Counted from the stretch's first letter, positions 7,732 through 64,000 are shown. The stretch: 64,000 nucleotides of DNA from an uncultured Actinomycetes bacterium (GCA_963824545.1 CAWGPP010000013.1:38924-102923); one strand, 5' to 3'. The notes: generated by a model from the sequence alone, not told the origin. A program made the numbers and translations.

Positions 7732-9252
7732 GTGCCCACGCTCACCGACCTGGCTAGCCGCCATACCAACCTGACCAGCGCAGACCTGGAGTGCCTGCAC
7801 GCGCTGGTGTCGGATTGGCAGCTCCTGGCCGACTTGTCGTTCGCCGATCTGATCCTATGGGCACCGGTCCGTGACGGTAGTGGCTGGGTGGCGCTGGCCC
7901 AGATGCGCCCGACCACCGGGCCCACCTCGTTCCAGGACGACGTGGTCGGGACGCTGGCCCAGCCGGGGGCCAGGATGCTGCTGGAGACGGCGCGGGACGA
8001 GCGCAGGATCTGGCGGGAGAGTGACCCGGACTGGACCACGGGCGTGCCCGTGCGTGCCGAGACCATCCCGGTGACCCGGGCAGGCCGGGTGATCGCCGTG
8101 ATCGAGCGGAACACCAACCTCAACTCCGCGCGCACGCCGAGCCGCCTGGAACTGACGTACCTGCAGGGTGCCGACGACCTGGCCCGGATGGTGGCCGAGG
8201 GGACGTTCCCGTTCGGCAGTGAGCTGGCCACGCTGGCCCGTTCGCCGCGCGTCGGTGACGGCCTGCTCCGCCTCGGCCGCGCCGGGCGCGTCACGTACGC
8301 GAGCCCCAACGCGCTGTCCGCGTTCCGCCGGCTCGGGCTGGCCACCGACCTGGTGGGCGCGGAGCTGGGGTCGCTGACCGCGAAGCTGTGCGCCTCCTGC
8401 GGCGGCCCGCTGGACGAGTCGCTGATGCTGGTGGCGTACGGCCGGGTCCCGCGCGATGCGGAGATGGAGGGCAACGGGTCGATCGTCCAGCTGCGCTCGA
8501 TCCCGCTCATCGTGGGCGGCAGCCGGACCGGGGCCCTGATCCTGGTGCGCGACGTGACCGAGCTGCGCCGCCGCGAACGTGAGCTGATGACCAAGGACGC
8601 AACGATCCGGGAGATCCATCACCGCGTCAAGAACAACCTGCAGACGGTGGCCGCGCTGCTCCGCCTGCAGGCCCGCAGGCTGCGCGGCCCGGAGGCGCGG
8701 GCGGCCCTCGAGGACGCGGTGCGCCGCGTCGGCTCGATCGCGATCGTGCACGAGACGCTCTCGCACGCGCCCGACGAGATCGTCGCCTTCGACGAGGTCG
8801 CGGACCGCGTCGTGATGATGGCCTCCGAGGTCGCCGGAACCGAGATCCGGGTCACACCCAAGCTGACCGGCACGTTCGGCCTGCTGCCGGCGTACATCGC
8901 GATGCCGCTCGCGCTGGTGCTGACCGAACTGCTGCAGAACGCGCTGCAGCATGGCTTCGCCTACCCCGAGCCGGTGGCCGGGGAGACGCAGCGGTCGACC
9001 GGCAGTGTGGAGGTCAGCGCCGTCCGCGGGACGGACCGGCTGACGGTCGTGGTCGTCGACGACGGGGTCGGGCTGCCGGAGGATTTCGATCCGGAGTCAT
9101 CCAGCTCGCTGGGGCTGCAGATCGTCCGGACGCTGGTGGTCGGCGAGCTGGGCGGCAAGCTGGAGATCACGCCCCGGGCGGAGGGCGGCACACAGGCACT
9201 CGTCGACCTGCCGGTAGCGGAGGACGACCGACCCGGCCCCGTCAGCGATTAG
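7732..9252 (+). CDS. pdtaS: soluble GAF/PAS sensor histidine kinase PdtaS-like
   Basis: H-box EIHHRVKNNLQTVAALLRLQ (HisKA_2 type) with a C-terminal HATPase. GTG at 7732 gives 506 aa. The longer ORF-track start overlaps bioF antisense. Lies next to whiB1 as in M. tuberculosis. Confidence 0.85.
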   Translation: MPTLTDLASRHTNLTSADLECLHALVSDWQLLADLSFADLILWAPVRDGSGWVALAQMRPTTGPTSFQDDVVGTLAQPGARMLLETARDERRIWRESDPDWTTGVPVRAETIPVTRAGRVIAVIERNTNLNSARTPSRLELTYLQGADDLARMVAEGTFPFGSELATLARSPRVGDGLLRLGRAGRVTYASPNALSAFRRLGLATDLVGAELGSLTAKLCASCGGPLDESLMLVAYGRVPRDAEMEGNGSIVQLRSIPLIVGGSRTGALILVRDVTELRRRERELMTKDATIREIHHRVKNNLQTVAALLRLQARRLRGPEARAALEDAVRRVGSIAIVHETLSHAPDEIVAFDEVADRVVMMASEVAGTEIRVTPKLTGTFGLLPAYIAMPLALVLTELLQNALQHGFAYPEPVAGETQRSTGSVEVSAVRGTDRLTVVVVDDGVGLPEDFDPESSSSLGLQIVRTLVVGELGGKLEITPRAEGGTQALVDLPVAEDDRPGPVSD

Positions 9253-53802: not shown

Positions 53803-54186
53803 TCAGAGCAGTTTGAGCAGGTTGGCATGGCCGTCCTGGCGGACGATGATTTCTGCCCCGGCGTTGAGCACAGCGTCGATGTACTCGTAGAGGGACAGTG
53901 CCCTGTTGACGATGTCGGTCCTGGATAGGTCGGTTCTGTCGTGGGTGCGCTGAAGGTCTGCTGCCGCCTTGTCAATGAGCGGAACAGTTATCTGGTCCGC
54001 TACGGGGGCCAGTTCCCGTAGCGGACCAGAGCTGCCGGTGCTATGTGGCGCTTCCCCGGCCTGCTCGGGTGCGCAATCGGCCGTGGCTGATGGTGGGTCT
54101 GCAGCTGGGCCGGATGCCGCCCCTGCGGTATCCGGCGGCGCTGCCGCCACGAGACGCGGCGTGGCGCCGTGTGTACGACCACCCAT
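53803..54186 (-). CDS. ribbon-helix-helix-like small DNA-binding protein, island paralog 1
   Basis: ATG 54186 follows GGGAGG. C-terminal 60 aa (ITVPLIDKAAADLQRTHDRTDLSRTDIVNRALSLYEYIDAVLNAGAEIIVRQDGHANLLKLL) align with 55347..55610 and 63052..63288. Confidence 0.7.
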   Translation of the reverse strand: MGGRTHGATPRLVAAAPPDTAGAASGPAADPPSATADCAPEQAGEAPHSTGSSGPLRELAPVADQITVPLIDKAAADLQRTHDRTDLSRTDIVNRALSLYEYIDAVLNAGAEIIVRQDGHANLLKLL

Positions 54187-54366
54187 GGTTGTCCCTACCT
54201 CCCTGATGTTGACGGACAGGATCGTCTCCCGCACTACGGAGATGCACTATACAGTCAATGTGCAGCATAAATGTAGAGCCCCGTGTGGTAAATAGATGTA
54301 GTTCAGCTGTCTCTGATACAGCTATACTGACGAAATGTGTCGGCTGCTGCCTGACAGGAGGTGCCC

Positions 54367-54612
54367 ATGGAGCCGCCAGAAAGCCTCCCCGCCGGTGCCG
54401 GACTGCCCAACCAGGGTGGCGAGAAGCCTGCTGCGGACCGGCCGGCCGAGCCTGTGCTGGCACTGCAGGCGCCGACGGCAGCGGCTGAACTCGTCCTCAT
54501 ATTGCTTCCGCCTGACCATGAAGTCATCGCTCGGGACCGCTGGCCCGCACGGCTGCTCCGGCATGGCCTCCACGCGGCCTGGCGGGGGATCGGCGGTGGC
54601 CCCAGGGGGTAA
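54367..54612 (+). CDS. 81-aa motif protein A (PTAAAELVLILLP)
   Basis: CAGGAGG lies 5 nt before the ATG, with a TATACT -10 box at 54323. Divergent from RHH paralog 1. Motif at 54472..54510. Confidence 0.55.
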   Translation: MEPPESLPAGAGLPNQGGEKPAADRPAEPVLALQAPTAAAELVLILLPPDHEVIARDRWPARLLRHGLHAAWRGIGGGPRG

Positions 54613-54857
54613 GGGGATACTGTCGCACCAGTTCGGGCGGTCGCGAAGCACTCGCTGCATATGTTCGGCTTGTTCGTTCTTTCCGGCACTGCCAACGTCT
54701 TGTATCTACCGGGAGTAGCTATCCGGCCGCGAACTATGATAGCTAATTGTTCACTCTGACTCTGCTGTACAAAGCTAATATTCGATGTTAGGTTCGACTT
54801 CAGTCCAGTCGATGTCGCAACTTGGTCCGCACCTTGAGGCTGAGAAGGGGAGGGAAC

Positions 54858-54989
54858 ATGGGAAAGGTGGCGCAAAGCCTGGCAGGCTTCTCTGACGACG
54901 ACGATTACGGGCCATCTGGGGATACTGAGCAGCCCTCCCCGATGGCTGAGCTGGCCATAAGGCTGGAGCGCGTAGAACCCGGCCAGTGA
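54858..54989 (+). CDS. 43-aa acidic motif protein E (PSPMAELAIRLERVEP)
   Basis: Not in the ORF track. GAAGGGGAGGG precedes the ATG. MGKVAQSLAGFSDDDDYGPSGDTEQPSPMAELAIRLERVEPGQ. Confidence 0.45.
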   Translation: MGKVAQSLAGFSDDDDYGPSGDTEQPSPMAELAIRLERVEPGQ

Positions 54990-55141
54990 CTGAGGCCGGG
55001 GCTGCCCCGGCTTGTGCAGGCTGGCGTCTGGGGTAAGGGGTCTGCTGCCCAGTCATCCGATCCGCAGGCCAGGGCGGGCATCTCGGTGTGCGCTTCGCAT
55101 GGCATATCGCAGCTGACGAGACCCAAAACGGCCAATCTAGC

Positions 55142-55194
55142 ATATGGTTCCCAGAACCATATATTGACTGGCCCCCAGGTGACGCATGTATGCT
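55142..55194 (+). promoter_or_regulatory. 21-bp palindrome abutting a TTGACT / TATGCT promoter upstream of RHH paralog 2
   Basis: atatggttc-cca-gaaccatat (55142..55162), then TTGACT (55164..55169) and TATGCT (55189..55194). Confidence 0.45.
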
Positions 55195-55346
55195 AACAGT
55201 ACACGCAACGAGACAGGGCTGGCCTGCAATACAGGTGGGCCCTGTCTGCAACAGCTACAGCTTCACCTGACAACAGGTGTGCGCTGGTGATGCGGCGAGA
55301 GGGCCCTTGATGCGGATACCTGCTTGCCCTGAGAGGAGGAACCGCG

Positions 55347-55610
55347 ATGGCTACCAACGCGGGCAGTAGGGCGGAGAAGGACGATGGCACCCGGGCGCAG
55401 GGGGCGATAGACCGGATCACCGTTGCTCTGATCCGGAGGGCGGCAGAAGATCTCCAGGCCCTCCAGGACAGGACTGGCTATTCCAAGACGGACATTGTGA
55501 ACCGTGCGATCACGATGTACGAGTTCATCGACGCCCAGCAGAAGGCGGGGAAGGATCTGCTGGTGCGTGACCCGAAGACCGAGAAGACCGAGCTCGTCCG
55601 GTTCTTGTAG
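55347..55610 (+). CDS. ribbon-helix-helix-like small DNA-binding protein, island paralog 2
   Basis: 87 aa. GAGAGGAGG precedes the ATG. ITVALIRRAAEDLQALQDRTGYSKTDIVNRAITMYEFIDAQQKAGKDLLVRDPKTEKTELVRFL. Confidence 0.75.
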   Translation: MATNAGSRAEKDDGTRAQGAIDRITVALIRRAAEDLQALQDRTGYSKTDIVNRAITMYEFIDAQQKAGKDLLVRDPKTEKTELVRFL

Positions 55611-55750
55611 ACCGCGGCTGCTGGGCCGACAGGAACGGTCCCGGCCTGGTACGGCATTGTCAGTGCGGGCATGCAGGCCGTGGGAGGGTATCCAGGATCT
55701 GCCGTCACGCATGCGTATGGATGCCCTCCTGCCCTATAGCTCGATAACTG

Positions 55751-55788
55751 GCACCCACCTGGGCTTAGCCTGGATGTGGTGCTTTTTT
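55751..55788 (+). terminator. hairpin plus T6 tract downstream of RHH paralog 2
   Basis: gcacccac ... gtggtgc followed by tttttt. A T-run is rare in this high-GC DNA. Confidence 0.4.
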
Positions 55789-55816
55789 GCTGCTGGGTGC
55801 TCTCTGCTCCCAGGGA

Positions 55817-56128
55817 CTACTCGGGCATCCTCCCTTCTGCCTGGCCTGACTGATCCGGGGTCCGGGCCTGACTGGAGAGGGCAATCAGCGCTGCCCCCAC
55901 AAACGCGAGCCCAAGCTCGGCCATGGCCAGGACGGTAAGGCTGGAACTGGCACGCAACGTGAGAACCGCGCCAGCGATTCCCATCGTGACGCACGTCAGA
56001 ATCCCGAACGCACCGATGAAATGACTGGTTTCGGCGAACGGAACGGTTCCTTCTGCAGTTACCCGTGTGGGCTGGACCTCGATCTTGAGCTGGGCGGCTG
56101 GGGTAGGCCGCTCAGCGGGGTCGGTCAT
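55817..56128 (-). CDS. 103-aa 2-TM membrane protein F with N-terminal motif (PTPAAQLKIEVQP)
   Basis: AAGGAGG lies 8 nt before ATG 56128. Two hydrophobic helices (FIGAFGILTCVTMGIAGAVL, LAMAELGLAFVGAALIAL). Confidence 0.65.
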   Translation of the reverse strand: MTDPAERPTPAAQLKIEVQPTRVTAEGTVPFAETSHFIGAFGILTCVTMGIAGAVLTLRASSSLTVLAMAELGLAFVGAALIALSSQARTPDQSGQAEGRMPE

Positions 56129-56304
56129 TAAGGGGTGCCTCCTTGAGAGTCGGTAAAGGGGGCCCGGCGCGTGCATCTAGGTCGTAGAGACCGGGTGGAT
56201 GGCCGCCTGCAGCCATGCCGTGGTATGGCCTGGACTGCTCGTCGCCTGAGGGCATCGGTGACGAGCCCTCTGGAACGGCCTTAAGCAGCTGTTGACTGCT
56301 TCAA

Positions 56305-56334
56305 AAGCTAGTTTAATACATGTATAAGCTGCAA
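56305..56334 (-). promoter_or_regulatory. sigma70-like promoter for membrane protein F (TTGCAG-18-TAGCTT)
   Basis: Read on the minus strand in an AT-rich stretch that also contains the palindrome tacatgta. Confidence 0.35.
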
Positions 56335-56706
56335 TCTAGCCGTACGCAGCCGTGATGTACGGCCGACCAGGCAAGCGGGAGCGCGCGGCCGCCGACCAGG
56401 CGGCCTCGGGCCGCTGATGGCGAGTCCCAGAGTCGGGCAGCCCGGCCACGGCGCCTGCCGCACCCTTGATCTTCCTCTGTCTCACTGGCATGCCTTCGTG
56501 TGCCGGGACAACCTGCTCAGCGTCGTTCTGCCCCTTGAACAGGCCAGTTGGCCACCACTCAGATGTCCGCGCAGCGGGGGGCCTGATGGCACGCCGTACG
56601 GGGACGGCGGCCGCAAGCAGAAAGCAAGGAACCGTCACCATCCGGCGCCGGACCAGTCAGCACGCCCCGGGCGTATATCTGCTGTAAAAATTATGCTGAT
56701 TAGATG

Positions 56707-56735
56707 TTGTACTTGCTGAAGGGTGATGCTAGATT
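56707..56735 (+). promoter_or_regulatory. sigma70-like promoter TTGTAC-17-TAGATT (module copy 1)
   Basis: Preceded by ctgtaaaaa and tagatgttg. Homologous to the module at 63775..63830. Confidence 0.45.
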
Positions 56736-57194
56736 GATGGCAGAACGAAGGGAGGTTGAGCAGTAAGAGCTGTAAAATGAGCAGCTTGCGGCTGCCTCAT
56801 ACGTCACTTTCACCGTGCCCATCACCTGGGGCTACCAAGGAGGTGAACCCCCGCAGGGAAGCCAGGGACGCCGGTTCCGCTCCCACTTCGCCAGGCGGAG
56901 CCGGCGTCCCGCGGCGGCACCTGAACTATCGACCCATTCGTCAGCAGGCAAAGACATCCCGGGCTGGCCTGGCGGCCAGCCCTTCCCGCTAGCAGCAGGC
57001 CGGAAGGCCGGAAAGGAGAACGTCAATGACCACGATCTCTATTTATGAGCGCCATGGGCTGCCTGGTACGCCGGCCATGCCGGCTAGCCGCAGCAGCCCT
57101 GGGTGTCGCTACCGGGGCGCCCGGGCCCACGGAAGGGCGCGGGACCTCCCTGGTACTGGGATCTGGGCCGGGCTGCCCGAAAGGAGGAATCGTC

Positions 57195-57449
57195 ATGATC
57201 ACGCTGTACCTGATCATCGCGGTGGCGCTGGTCGCTGCCGGCGCCGTCGCGGGCTTCATGGTGGTGGTCTCGTGGGGAATTCATCGTGAGGAAGCCCGCT
57301 ACAGCATGACGATTCACCCGCCGGGCCGGGTCGCGGCCGGGGTGCGGGTCGCGAACGGCATGCACGCCCGCTTCCCGGGAGTCATCCAGGAAGCCCGGTA
57401 TTACCGCCAGGATTTCCGCCCTCCCGGTCCGGGGGCGACGATCCGGTGA
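57195..57449 (+). CDS. 84-aa single-TM small protein
   Basis: AAGGAGG lies 7 nt before the ATG. MITLYLIIAVALVAAGAVAGFMVVVSW... An in-frame upstream ATG at 57045 would give 134 aa. Confidence 0.6.
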   Translation: MITLYLIIAVALVAAGAVAGFMVVVSWGIHREEARYSMTIHPPGRVAAGVRVANGMHARFPGVIQEARYYRQDFRPPGPGATIR

Positions 57450-57593
57450 TCGTGGCTTGTGCCTGCGGAGGCCAGCAGCTGGCCGGGGCGTCTAAGGCCT
57501 CGGCCAGCTGCCCTGACGGCGTCGCGGGATAACAAAGTGGACAGCGTCCACTAAATGCCGGGGGGCTCGCGATGAGCAGGAACAGGACTGGGG

Positions 57594-58034
57594 ATGCGGC
57601 GGGCCCAGCGCTCACCGCGCGTGTTCGACGCGTCGGCAACGCAGGCGCGCCGGTGGTGGAACCTCGCCGCGATCGCCCGCGACCTGGACGGCACGGTCGC
57701 CCTCTACGCCGACCGCAGCGACGAGGACCCGAATACAGTCAGCACATCGGTGCAGTCCTCCTCGACGGCCTACGCTGCGGAGCTACGCGGCGGCCTCCCA
57801 CGCGCTGACTTCGGCAACGCCGCTCCTCGGCGAGGCGTGAGTGCACCCAAATGCGGGAGCGGACCCGCACGGACAGCCGCCTCACCGTCAGCACCGACGT
57901 GCAGGGTGCGCCAGTGCGGGCTGCCGCATCACGACCATCGTAGGGCGGGGTTGCTCTGGGTGGTCAAAGTAGCGCATATCGTGACAGCCCGGGGAGCTCC
58001 TGGACGGGCATGCCGATCCCCTCGCCGGCGCTGA
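57594..58034 (+). CDS. hypothetical protein with degenerate motif copy (STAYAAELRGGLP); possibly decayed
   Basis: Good GC3 only in the first ~80 codons. Motif-like segment at 57762..57800. The 3' part looks non-coding. Confidence 0.3.
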   Translation: MRRAQRSPRVFDASATQARRWWNLAAIARDLDGTVALYADRSDEDPNTVSTSVQSSSTAYAAELRGGLPRADFGNAAPRRGVSAPKCGSGPARTAASPSAPTCRVRQCGLPHHDHRRAGLLWVVKVAHIVTARGAPGRACRSPRRR

Positions 58035-58111
58035 TGGAGCACATCGGGACCCGGTTCCGTAGGGCGGTGGCGTCTTACCCGTCATCCAACGGGATCCGTG
58101 GGTGAGGTCCG

Positions 58112-58323
58112 GTGACCTGCTACCTGGACCTCGGCCGCCCGGAGAACGTCGAGATCATCTTCGGCCGGCCCCTGCACCCCCCGGCCAGATGGCCTACGAC
58201 CTGCGCAGGCTTCGCCTCGCCAGCCTCATCAGGCGCATCGAGGCACCCGACGGCATTCTTCTGGCCGCTCGGGGTTTCCTGGACGCTCCCCTGAAGGGTA
58301 TGATGACGCTTGTCGACGTTTGA
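58112..58323 (+). pseudogene. frameshifted, internally deleted remnant of a multi-copy actinobacterial hypothetical-protein family
   Basis: The two frames read YLDLGRPENVEIIFGR and QMAYDLRRLRLASLIRRIEAPDG. From memory, these strings lie over 100 aa apart in intact family members. Confidence 0.4.
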
Positions 58324-58468
58324 AGACATACGTAGACGGGCTAGAAATGGCGATCAGCGGCGAAGCCCAGCGCGCGAGACAACTGCATGAAGGGAAGGGT
58401 CATGACCGGACACTGCGTGAGTCCCGGCGTCACCAGCAAACCGGGAAACGGATTGTCACGGAAAGTAA

Positions 58469-58485
58469 CCTTAAGGACCTTAAGG
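58469..58485. promoter_or_regulatory. two tandem palindromic octamers CCTTAAGG-A-CCTTAAGG
   Basis: Located 23 nt upstream of ATG 58508. Confidence 0.4.
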
Positions 58486-58507
58486 AAGAGAAAGAGAAGC
58501 AGGCCCA

Positions 58508-58891
58508 ATGAACATCTCCGATCCAGCCGTCCCCTCCGGCCGGGATGACGAGGAACCTACCTCTGCCGCGGAACTTGTGATCCTCCCGGCCCGCATTTTC
58601 GGCCGTTTGAAAGGCAGCCGGAACCGCGAGACGGGAAGGCGCCCGCCGCGCTGGCCGCGAGTGCGCCTGCACTCAGCGGCGCCGCAGGCCCGCGTTAAGA
58701 ACTCCGCTTCCGCCGTACCCGCGCAGGCAGATCCGCCCGCCGCGGAGGCGCCCACAACTGCCGCGGAGCTCACGGTGATCCTCCTGCCTTATTCTTTTGC
58801 CCGCAGGCCCTGCCAGGCTGGGCCGAAGAACGGAAGAGCAGGACAAAGCCCGCGCCGATGGACGCGGCCGCCCGGCTCCGGTCCGCCGTGA
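58508..58891 (+). CDS. 127-aa basic protein carrying two motif copies (PTSAAELVILP, PTTAAELTVILLP)
   Basis: Purine-rich GAGAAAGAGAAG precedes the ATG. Motifs at 58556..58588 and 58751..58789. Upstream of the tandem-Phd gene. Confidence 0.55.
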   Translation: MNISDPAVPSGRDDEEPTSAAELVILPARIFGRLKGSRNRETGRRPPRWPRVRLHSAAPQARVKNSASAVPAQADPPAAEAPTTAAELTVILLPYSFARRPCQAGPKNGRAGQSPRRWTRPPGSGPP

Positions 58892-58961
58892 CCGGCAGGG
58901 CGTTTGGGGGGCAGCACCCGAGAGGCCTAGCCTGGGTGCGTTGCACAGGAAGAGCGTTGCC

Positions 58962-59711
58962 ATGGAAACAATCAGCATCCGCAACCTGCGAGGGAAGGCA
59001 CTTCGCGAGAAAGCAGCGAGCGGCAAGCCGCTAGCGATAACTAACCACCGTGCCCTGATCGGTGTCCTCATTCCCGTCGCGGCGGCCTGGGTCGAGCAGC
59101 TCATTGACTACAACTGGTCACACGTCCGGCAGAGCATCGCGGAAGGCGACCGGGCGCTCGCGGAAGGCCAGCCGATGATCAGGCTGGAGGACGTGTTTCC
59201 CGCCGTCGGCGATTCTGCCCCCGGCCCGGGGCCCGTACCTGATATGCCGGAAACAATGGCGGCGCCGCTCTTCGCGGCACTGACCGGTGAGGCGCTTGCC
59301 CAGTCTGCTGGGGGCCAGGAGGTTCTCGAGCAGCTGCGATCGGCGCTAGCTCCTCCCCGGCCACACGGAGCCGAGGGAGATAGCCCGACGTCCGTGCGTA
59401 CCGTGCGGATCGGTGACCTCTCCGCTGGTCTGATCGAAAAGGCGGGTCAGGCGGGACAGACGCTGGCGATTACGCATGAGCGGGAGCTAATCGGGATCAT
59501 GATCCCTGTCACCCAGGGGCTGGTGGAATTCCTCATCGAGCAGAACGTTTCCCGCGCCCTAGCCAACATCACCCGCGGTGAAATGCAGCTCCGGGTCACC
59601 GGCAAGCTGACCAGTCTCGATGAGGTACTTGATCCGCCGGAGAAGAATCCAGGCTCGCCCTCCCCGCCAGCGGCCGCTTCCAGGGATGACTGCGCCGCGG
59701 CCCAACCTTGA
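58962..59711 (+). CDS. single-chain tandem Phd/YefM-like antitoxin-fold protein
   Basis: Two internal repeats: METISIRNLRGKALREKAASGKPLAITNHRALIGVLIPV..WVEQLIDYNWSHVRQSIAEGD and VRTVRIGDLSAGLIEKAGQAGQTLAITHERELIGIMIPV..LVEFLIEQNVSRALANITRGE. Confidence 0.6.
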   Translation: METISIRNLRGKALREKAASGKPLAITNHRALIGVLIPVAAAWVEQLIDYNWSHVRQSIAEGDRALAEGQPMIRLEDVFPAVGDSAPGPGPVPDMPETMAAPLFAALTGEALAQSAGGQEVLEQLRSALAPPRPHGAEGDSPTSVRTVRIGDLSAGLIEKAGQAGQTLAITHERELIGIMIPVTQGLVEFLIEQNVSRALANITRGEMQLRVTGKLTSLDEVLDPPEKNPGSPSPPAAASRDDCAAAQP

Positions 59712-59799
59712 TAAGGTGGCCTGGCGTTTCCCGCAGCAGCGAGATTGTGAAGGTTCCGGCATCCCGGCGGAAGCCCCCTCCGGGGAACGCTGACCCGGG

Positions 59800-60225
59800 T
59801 TACGGCAGGCGCGGCGGCACAGAACGGGTGAACGCCGCCGTGGCCGACAAGATGTCGAAGACATAGACGCCCTTGTCGGCAGCATACCCATGCTCGTGCC
59901 GCCACCACTTAAGCTCATGGCTGTCCATAGGGCGGTGAACCGCCGTATAGCCTCCATGGCTGAGTGGAGTGGCGGTGTAGATCACGCCGTCCGGCGCCGC
60001 CTCGGCAGAGCGGCCCCGCCAAGCCCGCATATCGGAGTCATACCGGACTTCCATATGGGCATTCGGGCCTGCTATGAGTTCGTGCCGCAACGCTTCGCCG
60101 AGTTGACGCCGGCGTTCCCCCGTCAGGCGCAAGATCGCCACGAGCGCCGCCGGCCCCAGCGCCACTTCGTAGGCATGCGTTAACCCAGCATGCGTCATCA
60201 ATCCGCCCCCCAAGATCTTTAACAT
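59800..60225 (-). CDS. hypothetical 141-aa protein, weakly RelE/ParE-like in pattern
   Basis: AAGGTGGGG precedes ATG 60225. Convergent with the tandem-Phd gene and downstream of membrane protein D. No firm motif. Confidence 0.4.
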   Translation of the reverse strand: MLKILGGGLMTHAGLTHAYEVALGPAALVAILRLTGERRRQLGEALRHELIAGPNAHMEVRYDSDMRAWRGRSAEAAPDGVIYTATPLSHGGYTAVHRPMDSHELKWWRHEHGYAADKGVYVFDILSATAAFTRSVPPRLP

Positions 60226-60461
60226 CCTGCCCCACCTTATGAGCAGAAAGAATAAAGCCTGAGACAAGCTCACGACAATGATGTGAGAAAATCGGCAATC
60301 AAGCCAAAGGTGACAATAACTGATAAATCATCTCATTTCATTAACTCATGCTGACCCGCTTGCAGCACCGACGGTGACGTGCCCGCTGGCCGGCTGATGC
60401 AGACCAAGGGCACATCTTCCAGCGTCGCGGGGTCGCGGGCGGCCGCCGCCGCGTCGGCGGC

Positions 60462-60899
60462 TTACTTCGCCCGGTGAAGCGCACGGACAATGGCAAAGAC
60501 GCCGGCCGGTAGCAACAGGCCCCCGATGGTCACCCACGCCGGTGCGCCGACGGCCGCGGCGGTGCCCGCGATGAAACAGCCGGAAATAGTAAGCAGGACA
60601 GCGGCGATGGCCGTGGCCAGCGAAGATCCGCCGAATGTCTCTGTGCCCAGCTTTATAGACATTCCGCCGAGCCAGCCCGGGGCCTTGAACTCGAAGTTGC
60701 ACCGCTCGGGCAGAAGGACCACATGGAGTTCGGCCTTGGCGCTGGGCTGTTCGTCCCCGGCCGGCCTCTGCGGGGGGTGCGGGCTGGGTACGGCGGGGGG
60801 CCTGGCCACGGCTAGCTCTTCCGCGGACAGGTCAGCGGCCCGTGCAGGAGCACTGGCCGGCGTATGTACATGGAACCTCCTGTTGAGACGGTGTGCCAT
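60462..60899 (-). CDS. 145-aa 2-TM membrane protein D with motif copies (PSAKAELHVVLLP and degenerate SAEELAVARPP)
   Basis: Motif at 60708..60746, then ~25 aa and two hydrophobic helices (LATAIAAVLLTISGCFIAG, WVTIGGLLLPAGVFAIV). Same architecture as 55817..56128. Confidence 0.6.
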   Translation of the reverse strand: MAHRLNRRFHVHTPASAPARAADLSAEELAVARPPAVPSPHPPQRPAGDEQPSAKAELHVVLLPERCNFEFKAPGWLGGMSIKLGTETFGGSSLATAIAAVLLTISGCFIAGTAAAVGAPAWVTIGGLLLPAGVFAIVRALHRAK

Positions 60900-61048
60900 G
60901 GATACGCATAGAATATCTGTAAACTAGCTGGAAGACAAGCAGTGATTAACTGCGTTCACCGTCCTAACCCGATGAACGGGCGCCGAGCGGCCCCTCTGCG
61001 GAGCTCTGCACGGTGCAAAGGCCTGTGTCGGCTGCCGCTGCCGATTAT

Positions 61049-62506
61049 TTATCCGGCGGCGGCGGGAGCGGCGGCAGCGGCGCGTCGAGAACTGGGCCCG
61101 CAGCTGTCGAGCCGCAGTGCGTGCTCGATGAAGCTCTCCAGTACGCACACGGCGACGGCCTCAGCTCCCAGCAGTGCGGCATCCTGTGGGTTCGCCGGGA
61201 ATGGACGGACCCTGAGGTAATCGGGATCGCTGCTTCCCGCGAACGCCCGGGTGACCTCTGTTCTGACCGCGGCGAGGTAAGCGGCGGCAGCGGTATCGGG
61301 CTTCGGTTCAGCGAGGGCGGCAGGCAGGTAAGTGATGATCCTGTTGGGATTGACGGTGTTACTGACATGGGCCAGGGCGCGGCCAAGAGCAGCGCCGCTA
61401 CGCGCGAAGATCTCCTGTGCTCGCTGGAACTCCGGGCTGAGCGAATCGATCTCGCTTATCTGCTCCAGGGTGCCGCCGAGTTCCTCCTCGATTCGGCGCG
61501 GAGGCGCAAACGTGTCGACATGCCCGAACTGACCGCAGGGGCAGCGCGCCTTGAATCCACTGCCCATAGGGTCCTGAGATTCGGGCTCCTGGCCCGGGGC
61601 GAAGCCGACGGCGAGATGGCCTATTTCCATGGCCCGGCCATTGCCCCCCCGGCGCAGCCGGCCGTCCATGACCAGGCCGCCGCCGACTCCCTCATCAAAG
61701 ACACCGACCACTACGAGATCCGGCTCGGTGTAGTGGATCTGCTGGGTGGCCAGCACCGCCAAGGCGTTGACGTCGTTCTCAACTATCACGGGGATGGGCC
61801 GCTCGAAGCACGGGTCAGCCTCGAAGAGGTGGTGCAGCTTCTCTGCCAGCGAGACGGGACGCACGGACCGGTCGTTCGACTGCGGCATGACCTGGCCGTT
61901 ATAAGCGGGTGCCGCAACTTCCACACCCATCCCGAACAGCCGCAATGGTTCCAGCCCGCGGTCTGCTCTGTCCTTGTCACACGCGTTCTTGAGCAACGTC
62001 ACGTGCCGGTGTGCGAGTTCAGCTACCTGGTCCCAGCTGTCAGCCGGGTCGTGGGCTTTGCCGAGCACTCGCGAGCTGTCCAGCCCGAACAACGCTGTTG
62101 TTACGTGCGTAGGCCGTTCTTTGGCCTGCATCACCTTTACCCCTGCGGTCGCATACAGGCTCCCCAGGCGAAGCGGTGAGAGGGTCCGGCCATCGGAGTT
62201 GCGCAGGAGCTTCTCGCCGTCTTCAAGCAGGCCCTCGTCGATCAGTGCCTTTACTGCCTTGCTGACCGTGCCTTGGGGAATAGCGCGCTGGTCGACGACG
62301 CGGCGGGCCGCGGGGTTACCGGCCGAGATCTGCACCCGGGATGTCTCCTCCGGCGCCCGCAAGGATGTGCGCGCCAGCACCTCGCCCAGGACCTCCTGGC
62401 CAATGCCCGAGTGCCTGACGAGTTTGTCCAGCAGATGCTGAAACTGGTCGTGCTGCATAGCCAGACCACCCTGCTCCCGCGGCCCATGAACGATCTCTGT
62501 AGGCAT
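61049..62506 (-). CDS. ROK family transcriptional regulator
   Basis: 485 aa with N-terminal wHTH (VSKAVKALIDEGLLEDG), a ROK sugar-kinase fold (DEGVGGGLVMDGRLRRG) and zinc motif CPCGQFGHVD. Confidence 0.8.
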   Translation of the reverse strand: MPTEIVHGPREQGGLAMQHDQFQHLLDKLVRHSGIGQEVLGEVLARTSLRAPEETSRVQISAGNPAARRVVDQRAIPQGTVSKAVKALIDEGLLEDGEKLLRNSDGRTLSPLRLGSLYATAGVKVMQAKERPTHVTTALFGLDSSRVLGKAHDPADSWDQVAELAHRHVTLLKNACDKDRADRGLEPLRLFGMGVEVAAPAYNGQVMPQSNDRSVRPVSLAEKLHHLFEADPCFERPIPVIVENDVNALAVLATQQIHYTEPDLVVVGVFDEGVGGGLVMDGRLRRGGNGRAMEIGHLAVGFAPGQEPESQDPMGSGFKARCPCGQFGHVDTFAPPRRIEEELGGTLEQISEIDSLSPEFQRAQEIFARSGAALGRALAHVSNTVNPNRIITYLPAALAEPKPDTAAAAYLAAVRTEVTRAFAGSSDPDYLRVRPFPANPQDAALLGAEAVAVCVLESFIEHALRLDSCGPSSRRAAAAAPAAAG

Positions 62507-62576
62507 ATTATTCCCAACTGAGATAATGGGAAAACGAGGCTTGCAAAAAGATCTTTAGCTTTTTCCGGCATCCGAC

Positions 62577-62605
62577 TTGCAGTGAGAATGTCATGTGAGT
62601 AGGTT
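62577..62605 (+). promoter_or_regulatory. sigma70-like promoter TTGCAG-17-TAGGTT upstream of motif protein G
   Basis: Exact 17-nt spacer. Divergent from the ROK gene. Confidence 0.4.
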
Positions 62606-62658
62606 CATATTACCCTGCTCGACCGCGCGGGGCGAACAAACAGAGGGGAGCGGCGACG

Positions 62659-62838
62659 GTGAAGTGCTCACAGGAGGGAACGACCGCCACCCGGCGAGCA
62701 CGGGCCGGCTGCCCTACGCGGGCCGTGCACGCCAGGGGAGGCGACTCATCCAGGCAAGAACGACCGGGCGGCGAGGAGCCAACGTTGTCCGCGGAGATGA
62801 CGATCAGGGTCGTGCCCATCCCGGACGAGGACGCATAG
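62659..62838 (+). CDS. 59-aa motif protein G (EEPTLSAEMTIRVVPIP, C-terminal)
   Basis: Not in the ORF track (59 aa). GTG start lies 9 nt after GAGGGGAG. Ends ...QERPGGEEPTLSAEMTIRVVPIPDEDA. The listed minus ORF 62610..62939 is its antisense. Confidence 0.45.
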   Translation: MKCSQEGTTATRRARAGCPTRAVHARGGDSSRQERPGGEEPTLSAEMTIRVVPIPDEDA

Positions 62839-63051
62839 GCACCAGCCCCCCGCGGCCAGCCAGCGGCAGCTGCCCACAGCAGTGATAGGGCATCAAGGGC
62901 GGCCCAGCAGGGACGCCGTCCCCAGAGTCTCGAAGGCATCTCAGCGGCGCCGCCGAACGGCTTGCCTCGCTGCGTGCACAGAAAGGGGCCTTCCCCGCGG
63001 CACCAAAGCGGCAGGGATTTCCCTCTGGCGTCTGATCCCCCGTGAAGCCAG

Positions 63052-63288
63052 CTACAGGATTACGACGGCCTGGGTCTCTCCTGTCGCCTTGTCCCGGATG
63101 AGCACCTCCCGGCCGGCGCTGATCTGGGTGTCGATGAAGTCATACAAGGTGATCGCGCGATTCGCGAGATCTGTCTTGGACAAGTTGGTCCTGTTCTGAA
63201 GGCGCTGGAGTTCCTCCGCGACCTTTGGTACCAGGGCAACCGTGATTCGCTCAACAACCGGTGTGTGGTTGTCCGCGGTGGCGGCCAT
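63052..63288 (-). CDS. ribbon-helix-helix-like small DNA-binding protein, island paralog 3
   Basis: ATG 63288 follows GGAAGGAG. 78 aa: ITVALVPKVAEELQRLQNRTNLSKTDLANRAITLYDFIDTQISAGREVLIRDKATGETQAVVIL. Confidence 0.75.
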   Translation of the reverse strand: MAATADNHTPVVERITVALVPKVAEELQRLQNRTNLSKTDLANRAITLYDFIDTQISAGREVLIRDKATGETQAVVIL

Positions 63289-63440
63289 CGTGAATCTCCT
63301 TCCAAGGACCCCAGAGCACGCCCTGGGCCCCCGCTTGGCCAGTATCAGACCATCGAGCGGTCCGGTGCGGAGGCTTGTTGTGGATCCGGCTACCGAATGT
63401 TGCATGAAGTAGCGGCCGATGTTGTGCATCGAAGCTGCTT

Positions 63441-63463
63441 CGTTGCTATCCACGATAGCAACG
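63441..63463. promoter_or_regulatory. 23-bp perfect palindrome upstream of RHH paralog 3
   Basis: cgttgctatc-cac-gatagcaacg (10-bp arms, 3-nt spacer). On the minus strand it overlaps a TGTACA-16-TATCGT promoter candidate. Confidence 0.5.
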
Positions 63464-63801
63464 CCTGTGCGGTTGTACAGACCGTCGACAGAAAATTACT
63501 GTAAAAATACTCCATTCCCCTGACCAACTTCGCAGCTTATCTCTGCCAGAGGCTCCACTGAACAGGACCTTCCTCCTTGCCTCTCCAGGCCGGAAGGCAT
63601 CCTGGCGGCTGTGCCGTCATATGGCCCCCTTCGGCCGGCTGAGCCATCGCCGTAGCCTGGCGACCCGTGGTTAACCCGCCGCGCGATGCTCTCGCCGCTT
63701 TGCGTGCTCGCGGGGGCAGGCAGCAGGCGGCTCGGACCGCAAGCTGCCCAGGGGCAGAGCCGTTAGCATGTCTTCTCTGTAAAAAAACTGCACTCTAGAT
63801 G

Positions 63802-63830
63802 TTGCTAGACTGCTTTCAGCGCTGTATATT
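63802..63830 (+). promoter_or_regulatory. sigma70-like promoter TTGCTA-17-TATATT (module copy 2)
   Basis: Preceded by ctgtaaaaaaactgcactctagatgttg, matching the 56680..56735 module. Confidence 0.5.
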
Positions 63831-63943: not shown

Positions 63944-64000
63944 ATGACCGCCAGCCTGGCCAGGAACGTTGCGTGGCCACAGGCAGCGGGCGGCCGTATC
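63944..64000 (+). CDS. 5' end of an unknown gene running off the window
   Basis: CCAAGGAGGTGAAC lies 3 nt before the ATG (the AAGGAGG core 7 nt before it). MTASLARNVAWPQAAGGRI... The same CCAAGGAGGTGAAC string occurs at 56834..56847. Confidence 0.45.
   Translation, partial: MTASLARNVAWPQAAGGRI

Follow-up and report, generated by a model that had tools for sequence, protein, structure and literature searches.

A 64,000-nucleotide stretch of DNA from an uncultured Actinomycetes bacterium (GCA_963824545.1, CAWGPP010000013.1:38924-102923), referred to here as the window and numbered from its first letter, ends inside a low-GC island that carries four paralogous regulator-like genes, par1 to par4 (Table 1). 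Their products are predicted, from sequence, to belong to an uncatalogued family of small DNA-binding proteins that occurs mainly in Streptosporangiaceae and in soil metagenome-assembled genomes (MAGs). In the reading that we prefer, and to which we assign a probability of about 60%, these proteins are cooperative ribbon-helix-helix (RHH) repressors that recognize a short CAAC(A/G) box, hold par2 and par3 under autorepression, and also repress the promoters of a conserved neighboring gene, c14, and of the B-type family genes, par4 among them.

An earlier, sequence-only reading of the window had placed three RHH-like genes in the island. All three open reading frames (ORFs) were found where they had been placed, and the peptide strings quoted for them match. 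The count of three was one short, since a scan of the contig, extended beyond the window, with a hidden Markov model (HMM) of the family found par4, which the window end cuts. Gene calls made independently on matching metagenome contigs of the European Nucleotide Archive (ENA) give par1, par2, and par3 the same lengths, 127, 87, and 78 amino acids (aa). The C-terminal 62 to 67 residues of these three proteins are 38 to 60% identical in pairwise comparison, and pairwise BLASTP E values range from 1e-10 to 1e-22 (database size, 2e7); thus, they are true paralogs. The family HMM scores the paralogs at E values of 1e-29 to 1e-42. Their alignment, described before as gapless, is so for par2 and par3 over 67 aa, but par1 is 2 residues shorter in the hairpin turn and needs a 2-aa gap, or can be aligned without gaps over just 53 to 56 aa. 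It is the most divergent copy, and its first strand reads QITVPL in place of RITVAL. The N-terminal extension of par1 does measure 65 aa; those of par2 and par3, put at about 20 aa, are 23 and 14 aa long. Each gene had also been credited with a ribosome-binding site (RBS) and a promoter of its own. Plausible Shine-Dalgarno sequences indeed stand in front of par1 (GGGAGG, before the ATG at 54186), par2 (GAGAGGAGGAA), and par3 (GGAAGGAGA). The promoters are borne out just indirectly: a conserved sigma-70-like block was found for par4, and no consensus promoter was found for par1, par2, or par3.

The conserved residues of the family follow the order of elements in the RHH superfamily, in which a strand (here R-I-T-V-A-L) is followed by helix A, a G-L/Y-S turn, and helix B. 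In an alignment of 42 homologues, R23, I24, T25, V26, A27, and L28 are near-invariant; L36, T43, S46, T48, D49, N52, R53, A54, and Y58 are also conserved, as is a C-terminal tail of the form LLVRD..TGE.Q.V..L. An AlphaFold2 (AF2) monomer model contains helices at residues 30 to 43 and 47 to 66 and a hairpin at 71 to 74 and 81 to 84, all with a predicted local distance difference test (pLDDT) score above 90. Residues 22 to 28 are modeled as unpaired coil (pLDDT, ~66), as expected for an RHH strand that has no partner in a monomer model. Profile comparisons gave sub-threshold matches to RHH proteins: the designed RHH protein 2mdv (E = 0.015), Pfam RHH_1 for par3 and P0129 (E = 0.017; score, 15.5 bits; cut-off, 20.5), PSK_trans_fac for par2 (E = 0.029; score, 15.7 bits; cut-off, 28.3), and CopG (1b01; E = 0.7 in the Protein Data Bank [PDB]), whose residues 3 to 39 align with family residues 22 to 58 (RLTITL with RITVAL, and GLSKS with GLSKT). 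The alignments to 2mdv, RHH_1, and CopG are in full register, and those to RHH_1 and CopG extend from the strand through helix A and the G-x-S loop into helix B. When the model was compared with BFVD using Foldseek, an annotated phage CopG-type RHH protein was matched with a TMt of 0.77 (root mean square deviation [rmsd], 2.6; E = 0.47). Whole-chain matches to unnamed phage proteins of 62 to 79 aa had a TMt of 0.65 to 0.82 (rmsd, 2.3 to 3.4; E = 3e-3 to 9e-2). An RHH core with a C-terminal hairpin is thus supported but not proven by the sub-threshold matches and the monomer model. The RHH assignment proposed in the sequence-only reading is consistent with the results of all these comparisons, and the fold prediction still favors RHH, but none of the matches reaches significance.

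With par2 as the query, 125 proteins of ~85 to 90 aa were found, all unnamed and without Pfam domains, and an exhaustive profile search returned 1,604 clusters (at 50% identity) at an E value of ≤1e-3, 457 of them at ≤1e-10. The source databases hold no names for these clusters, scans of Pfam, NCBIfam, PHROGs, and PADLOC gave no model above threshold, and no paper on the family was found in the literature. In particular, the family does not map to a characterized antitoxin or partition regulator. Its close relatives in reference genomes are in Streptosporangiaceae (Streptosporangium and Sphaerisporangium) and the related Actinomadura, with others in Amycolatopsis, Arthrobacter, and many soil MAGs. 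Among 72,556 plasmid records there were two weak matches, both on Streptomyces linear plasmids and annotated as hypothetical, and phage records contained none. Many members are solitary and adjoin unrelated genes, and one (P0188) is an RHH-TIR fusion with a TIR_2 domain. In another MAG, a divergent RHH pair (L037, 7549..7851 on the minus strand and 7974..8300 on the plus strand) lies directly upstream of a DEAD/DUF3516 helicase gene; the gene finder missed the minus-strand copy, so that counting family copies from gene calls gives underestimates.

The four genes of the island are not recent local duplicates. In a tree of all copies in the loci fetched from related genomes (labeled L003, L004, and so on), par2, par3, and par4 fall in different subfamilies, called A, C, and B type, each of which has orthologues in other genomes; par1 is an outlier. 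Copies commonly cluster, with four lying within a few kilobases in L007 and L015, three in L010, L014, and L037, and two in L008, L012, L017, L034, and L042. The paralogs are old subfamilies that keep fixed positions beside the same neighbor genes elsewhere. An A- or C-type gene is followed by a convergent gene, c6, for a protein with two transmembrane (TM) helices, and behind a B-type gene come a small 1-TM ORF of the m84 type and then convergent c14. This second order is the one found downstream of par4. What had been called a modular, duplicated regulatory unit is thus a recurring module with constant neighbors, but not the product of recent local duplication.

The regions upstream of some family genes contain phased arrays of the CAAC(A/G) box, which was spotted in alignments of these regions. 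In 41 nonredundant upstream regions, we counted 45 forward boxes against 25.5 ± 5.3 in shuffles. Box-to-box distances cluster at 21 to 22, 42 to 44, and 64 to 65 bp. Phased pairs number 21, where shuffling yields 0.36 and random placement 1.73, and 21 was reached in none of the 1000 shuffle and 2000 random-position trials. The arrays consist of 3 to 5 boxes and lie 65 to 140 nucleotides (nt) upstream of A- and C-type genes. A three-box pattern with gaps of 16 to 17 bp has three matches in the window, where 0.00 are expected: one upstream of par2 and two, overlapping, upstream of par3. The par2 array has spacings of 21, 22, and 22 bp and stands 72 to 141 nt before the ATG. The last box of the par3 array and an inverted box at 63459-63 together form the palindrome CGTTGCTATCcacGATAGCAACG. 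This palindrome, at 63441, is one of three that had been put forward as binding sites, and it proved to consist of two inverted CAACG boxes that end the phased array; related loci lack conserved counterparts of the other two, at 55142 and 54716.

The same pattern recurs beyond the window. Across ~560 kb of loci, three-box matches precede RHH genes in L004, L010, L014, and L042 and stand at c14 starts in L014 (twice), with one exception inside an unrelated gene in L009. The array in L004 belongs to a solitary RHH gene without the other island genes, which leaves the RHH gene as the sole factor common to all arrays. Arrays were seen just with R(I/V)TVAL strands and not with the RITVGL or RITVSL variants. 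In the c14 upstream regions of five loci, a TAGATT/TAAATT hexamer sits between in-phase boxes. The B-type genes share a promoter block composed of CTGTAAAAA, TGTTGCA, N17, and TAnnnT, in which an inverted box falls on the -35 element; a consensus scan also finds the par4 copy at 63802-63830. A second such block stands upstream of m84. Behind it, within 56682..56850, lies a B-type RBS, CCAAGGAGGTGAAC, without a start codon or RHH ORF, and no RHH remnant was recognized there by eye, no sensitive search having been made. This block could be what is left of a decayed RHH-B gene or a promoter that now serves m84 (57195).

Other candidate signals were tried and set aside. Palindromes fail as shared operators, as the perfect inverted repeats upstream of family genes differ between loci; AGCWGCT and GATAGC showed no specific enrichment; and raw k-mer enrichment was partly an effect of composition and partly due to the conserved B-type promoter.

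From these features we infer dimerization, DNA binding, an assignment of paralogs to sites, and repression. Each paralog would dimerize via its N-terminal strand, R-I-T-V-A-L, and R23, T25, and A27 would read the box. These residues align with R4, T6, and T8 of CopG, which are the base-contacting residues in the CopG-DNA structure. Several dimers may then load cooperatively on an array of 3 to 5 boxes, on one face of the DNA and every 21 to 22 bp (two helical turns), with the hairpin, the N-terminal tails, or both possibly supplying dimer-dimer contacts. Because the arrays lie upstream of A- and C-type genes, we propose that par2 and par3 are autorepressed, and because in-phase boxes bracket the c14 -10 element and an inverted box overlaps the B-type -35 element, we propose that c14 and par4 are repressed as well. 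Since par2, par3, and par4 have the same reading residues, cross-regulation is expected; the three would compete or cooperate at the same boxes and so form a cross-regulating set. The corresponding residues of par1 are Q, T, and P, and this copy may have drifted to another specificity or may act solely through heterodimers.

Among characterized RHH proteins, CopG (RepA of pMV158; RHH_1, PF01402) resembles the family in its small size, in the order and register of strand, helix, GLSK loop, and helix, in its reading positions, and in the predicted autorepression by several dimers on one promoter-overlapping operator. The family differs in having a 20-residue helix B, a conserved C-terminal hairpin, and variable N-terminal tails of 14 to 65 aa, and its sequence match to CopG is sub-threshold. 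It sits in a chromosomal island, whereas CopG serves plasmid copy control, and its boxes are direct repeats 21 to 22 bp apart, whereas CopG binds a 13-bp pseudo-palindrome.

A number of points weigh against this proposal. None of the RHH profile matches in Pfam or PDB is significant or above the curated threshold, and NCBIfam gave no match. Foldseek against PDB also gave no significant match; Arc (1par) reached a TMt of 0.65 but at an E value of 2, and the nominal top matches were HU/IHF chains. Moreover, an RHH fold is defined by its dimer, whereas our model is a monomer. By the strict box definition, phased arrays are present at ~9 of the ~44 family genes examined and at none of the cultured Streptosporangium copies, and the link between arrays and R(I/V)TVAL strands may reflect mere relatedness. 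The statistics are post hoc, since both the box and the distance classes were set with the alignments already in view. A period of 21 to 22 bp is long for direct contact between RHH dimers of ~9 kDa. Finally, the boxes could belong to promoters or bind another factor whose gene lies elsewhere.

This last point can be put as a reading of its own, in which the paralogs are RHH regulators, the arrays are alternative-sigma promoter elements or the sites of another regulator, and the real operators are local palindromes or other sequences. AAC-containing -35 elements are typical of extracytoplasmic function (ECF) sigma promoters, a minority of family genes have arrays, and perfect palindromes are present in the 1.1-kb par1-par2 intergenic region (ATATGGTTCccaGAACCATAT at 55141..55163 and TAGCTATC-N14-GATAGCTA at 54717..54746). 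We nevertheless consider this reading unlikely, as three to five in-phase copies are unlike promoter architecture, the arrays travel with RHH genes even where the other island genes are absent (L004), and the palindromes are not conserved across loci. It is extremely improbable that the paralogs are HU/IHF-like nucleoid-associated DNA benders and not sequence-specific repressors. The IHF/HU chains that top the Foldseek list (E = 0.08 to 0.5; probability up to 0.97) share a superficially similar helix-helix-hairpin order, but we reject the assignment because the TM-scores are near 0.4 (0.35 to 0.43) and the rmsd exceeds 10 Å (10 to 13 Å). In addition, the RITVAL strand has no counterpart in HU, the sequence register is that of CopG from the strand through both helices, an annotated RHH protein and small phage proteins match better in structure, the hairpin strands are just 4 residues long, and there is no Pfam match to PF00216.

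The remaining alternatives would assign the paralogs to known RHH functions. RHH antitoxins (ParD, FitA, and RHH-VapB proteins such as Rv0623-like ones) likewise join an N-terminal RHH to a C-terminal extension, are frequent in accessory DNA, and occur as multiple paralogs per genome. On this basis, the paralogs might be antitoxins of type II modules whose hairpin neutralizes a neighboring toxin, e.g., c6, m84, or c14, which we regard as quite unlikely. Antitoxins usually consist of an RHH and a C-terminal tail that binds the partner; par2 has its weak match to the Rv0623-like (VapB) PSK_trans_fac, a small 1-TM ORF follows B-type genes on the same strand, TIR fusions occur in one family member and one c14 homologue, and the island encodes a YefM/Phd-like tandem protein. 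We reject the antitoxin assignment because of gene orientation and spacing: there is no tightly linked, co-directional and co-transcribed partner, c6, c14, and (in L007) c4 being convergent and the m84-type genes lying 170 to 310 nt downstream of the RHH gene. Many copies are solitary beside unrelated genes, no neighbor matches a toxin family in the Pfam, NCBIfam, PADLOC, and PHROG scans, and the family profile has no above-threshold match to ParD, FitA, or RHH-VapB. The C-terminal part here is a compact, conserved hairpin that the monomer model shows as well ordered, whereas toxin-binding tails are usually disordered. A function in partition or iteron binding, with the arrays as centromere- or iteron-like sites, is very improbable. 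ParR, ParG, and omega typically have direct-repeat arrays as their sites, and ~20 to 22 bp is the repeat size of iterons and of pSK41 parC; the low GC of the island and its differing contexts between genomes would also fit. Like the family, omega (pSM19035) and ParG (TP228) have a disordered N-terminal tail before the strand, and, as proposed for the family, one type of protein acts at several promoters through arrays of short, nonpalindromic boxes, direct and inverted, upstream of several genes. Their heptads or boxes abut, however, with a period of 7 to 8 bp, whereas the candidate boxes here are two helical turns apart; they have one regulator where the island has several paralogs with the same reading residues; and a ParA-type partner gene is absent here. 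ParR of pSK41 binds 20-bp tandem repeats as a dimer of dimers, and a period of ~20 bp fits two dimers per unit with filament-like cooperative loading. Yet no sequence similarity to ParR was detected, there is no evident ParM or centromere function, and the arrays here are short (3 to 5 units) and lie at promoters. No gene for ParA, ParM, Rep, a relaxase, an FtsK-like Tra protein, or an integrase was found in the island or in related loci, and neither flanking direct repeats nor att-like sites were found at the island borders. The family is nearly absent from plasmid records and unrepresented in phage records, and the arrays are operator-like in lying just upstream of genes and around a -10 element.

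The island itself, named as such in the sequence-only reading, is confirmed by the GC profile. It spans ~53.6 kb to ~66.5 kb in window coordinates, with its tail beyond the window end, and has a GC content of 0.62 to 0.66 against 0.72 to 0.75 outside it; the high-GC actinobacterial DNA of the window ranges from 0.69 to 0.76. It ends after c14, where MIP and amylase genes follow at normal GC. The host genome is Streptosporangiaceae-like. No tRNA gene or recombinase was found in the island, and there was no match to an Rfam family. The same gene set occurs in differing genomic contexts in different genomes, L042 being an example with a different chromosomal context. The island is also polymorphic between samples, because in one of them an IS256-type transposase gene (Transposase_mut; L003, 1758..3041) has inserted between a 43-aa ORF and par2, on the upstream side of the par2 box array.

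Table 1. Coordinates of the par genes, candidate control sites, and neighboring genes, in window numbering
Feature	Coordinates	Strand	Description
par1	53803..54186	-	127 aa; 65-aa Ala/Pro-rich N-terminal tail, then RHH-like core and hairpin
par2 (A-type)	55347..55610	+	87 aa; convergent with 2-TM gene c6
par3 (C-type)	63052..63288	-	78 aa; divergent from par4
par4 (B-type)	63944..64192 (in window, 63944..64000)	+	82 aa; gene cut by window end
par2 box array	55206..55275	+	CAACG 55206, CAATA 55227, CAACA 55249, CAACA 55271
par3 box array	63376..63463	-	CAAC(A/G) at 63376-80, 63398-402, 63420-24, 63441-45 (plus-strand coordinates), 21-22 bp apart
par4 promoter block	63777..63830	+	CTGTAAAAA, TGTTGC (inverted box at -35), N17, TATATT
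Second B-type promoter block	56682..56740	+	CTGTAAAAA...TGTTGT...TAGATT; upstream of m84
c6	55817..56131	-	103 aa, 2-TM; convergent after A/C-type RHH genes in L007, L008, L014
m84	57195..57449	+	small single-pass membrane protein; homologues in other loci come after B-type RHH genes
c4	58962..59711	+	249 aa; internal tandem repeat of YefM/Phd-like N-terminal motif
c5	59800..60273	-	157 aa; conserved convergent partner of c4
m145	60462..60899	-	membrane protein; N-terminal motif in common with c6
ROK-family regulator	61049..62506	-	recurs in related islands L010, L042
c14	~64636..66498 (L029, 6791..8653), beyond window	convergent to par4	620 aa

The neighbor genes are conserved with the module and, except for the ROK regulator, which is often present among them, gave nothing above threshold in the Pfam, NCBIfam, PHROGs, and PADLOC scans. 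Gene c4 is always paired with convergent c5. Its two halves start (I/V)RxLRG...GKPLAITNHRALIGVLIPV and VRIGDLSA...GQTLAITHERELIGIMIPV, an internal tandem duplication; c4 has no Pfam match, and a PDB sequence search with it was empty. More than 445 unnamed homologues of c14 were found, one of which (P0370, 809 aa) carries a TIR_2 domain. PDB sequence searches with c14 were empty, and its model is an all-alpha solenoid (pLDDT, 89; predicted TM-score, 0.92) for which Foldseek returned just generic ARM/HEAT solenoids with TM-scores below 0.3, which is uninformative on function. The c6-like ORFs in L034 to L036 are unconfirmed.

A second paralogous set of ORFs in the island shares the N-terminal motif (E/D)xPTx(A/S)AxLx(I/V)x(V/L). 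It comprises c6, m145, and the ORFs at 62659..62838 (+), 54361..54612 (+), and 58508..58891 (+). In c6 (AERPTPAAQLKIEV) and m145 (PSAKAELHVVLLP) the motif continues into TM helices; it is kept in the c6 homologues of other loci, and the 59-aa ORF at 62659 has a homologue in L042. A MAG contig (L014, 860..13350) contains an inverted duplication of the module, in the order c5/c4, c14, RHH, c6, RHH and then RHH, c6, m84, c14, with box arrays at both c14 starts.

A broader proposal, which we advance tentatively and think doubtful, is that the paralogs form the control layer of an undescribed, horizontally moving gene system of 8 to 13 kb in Streptosporangiales. Its parts would be c14, small membrane proteins of two families, one of which bears the N-terminal (E/D)xPTxAAxLx(I/V) motif, the tandem YefM-like protein with its partner, and the ROK regulator; all except the last are without a family assignment. 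Repressors with identical reading residues would share two-turn arrays, and heterodimers or competition among them would set the threshold at which a membrane-active or NAD-linked function is released. That function is possibly abortive-infection-like, the sole hint being that RHH family members and c14 homologues are on rare occasions fused to TIR.

The family described here is an uncatalogued one inside a well-known superfamily, and what is new is the added hairpin, the layout with multiple paralogs, and the two-turn arrays. Its regulatory design is somewhat unusual; one more family of RHH autorepressors would be no great surprise to a specialist, and were the proteins just local autorepressors of the ordinary sort, a new family annotation would be all that is gained. 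The one-repressor RHH systems studied so far differ from this island, in which several old paralogs have reading residues in common and would share candidate operator arrays with a two-turn period. A family of ~1,600 clusters that is common in soil actinomycetes and lacks an entry in Pfam, NCBIfam, or PHROGs is here assigned a fold and given a candidate box together with a candidate regulon. Because the arrays tie the regulators to conserved but unassigned genes (c14 and the membrane proteins), they provide an experimental entry point to this system in Streptosporangiaceae.

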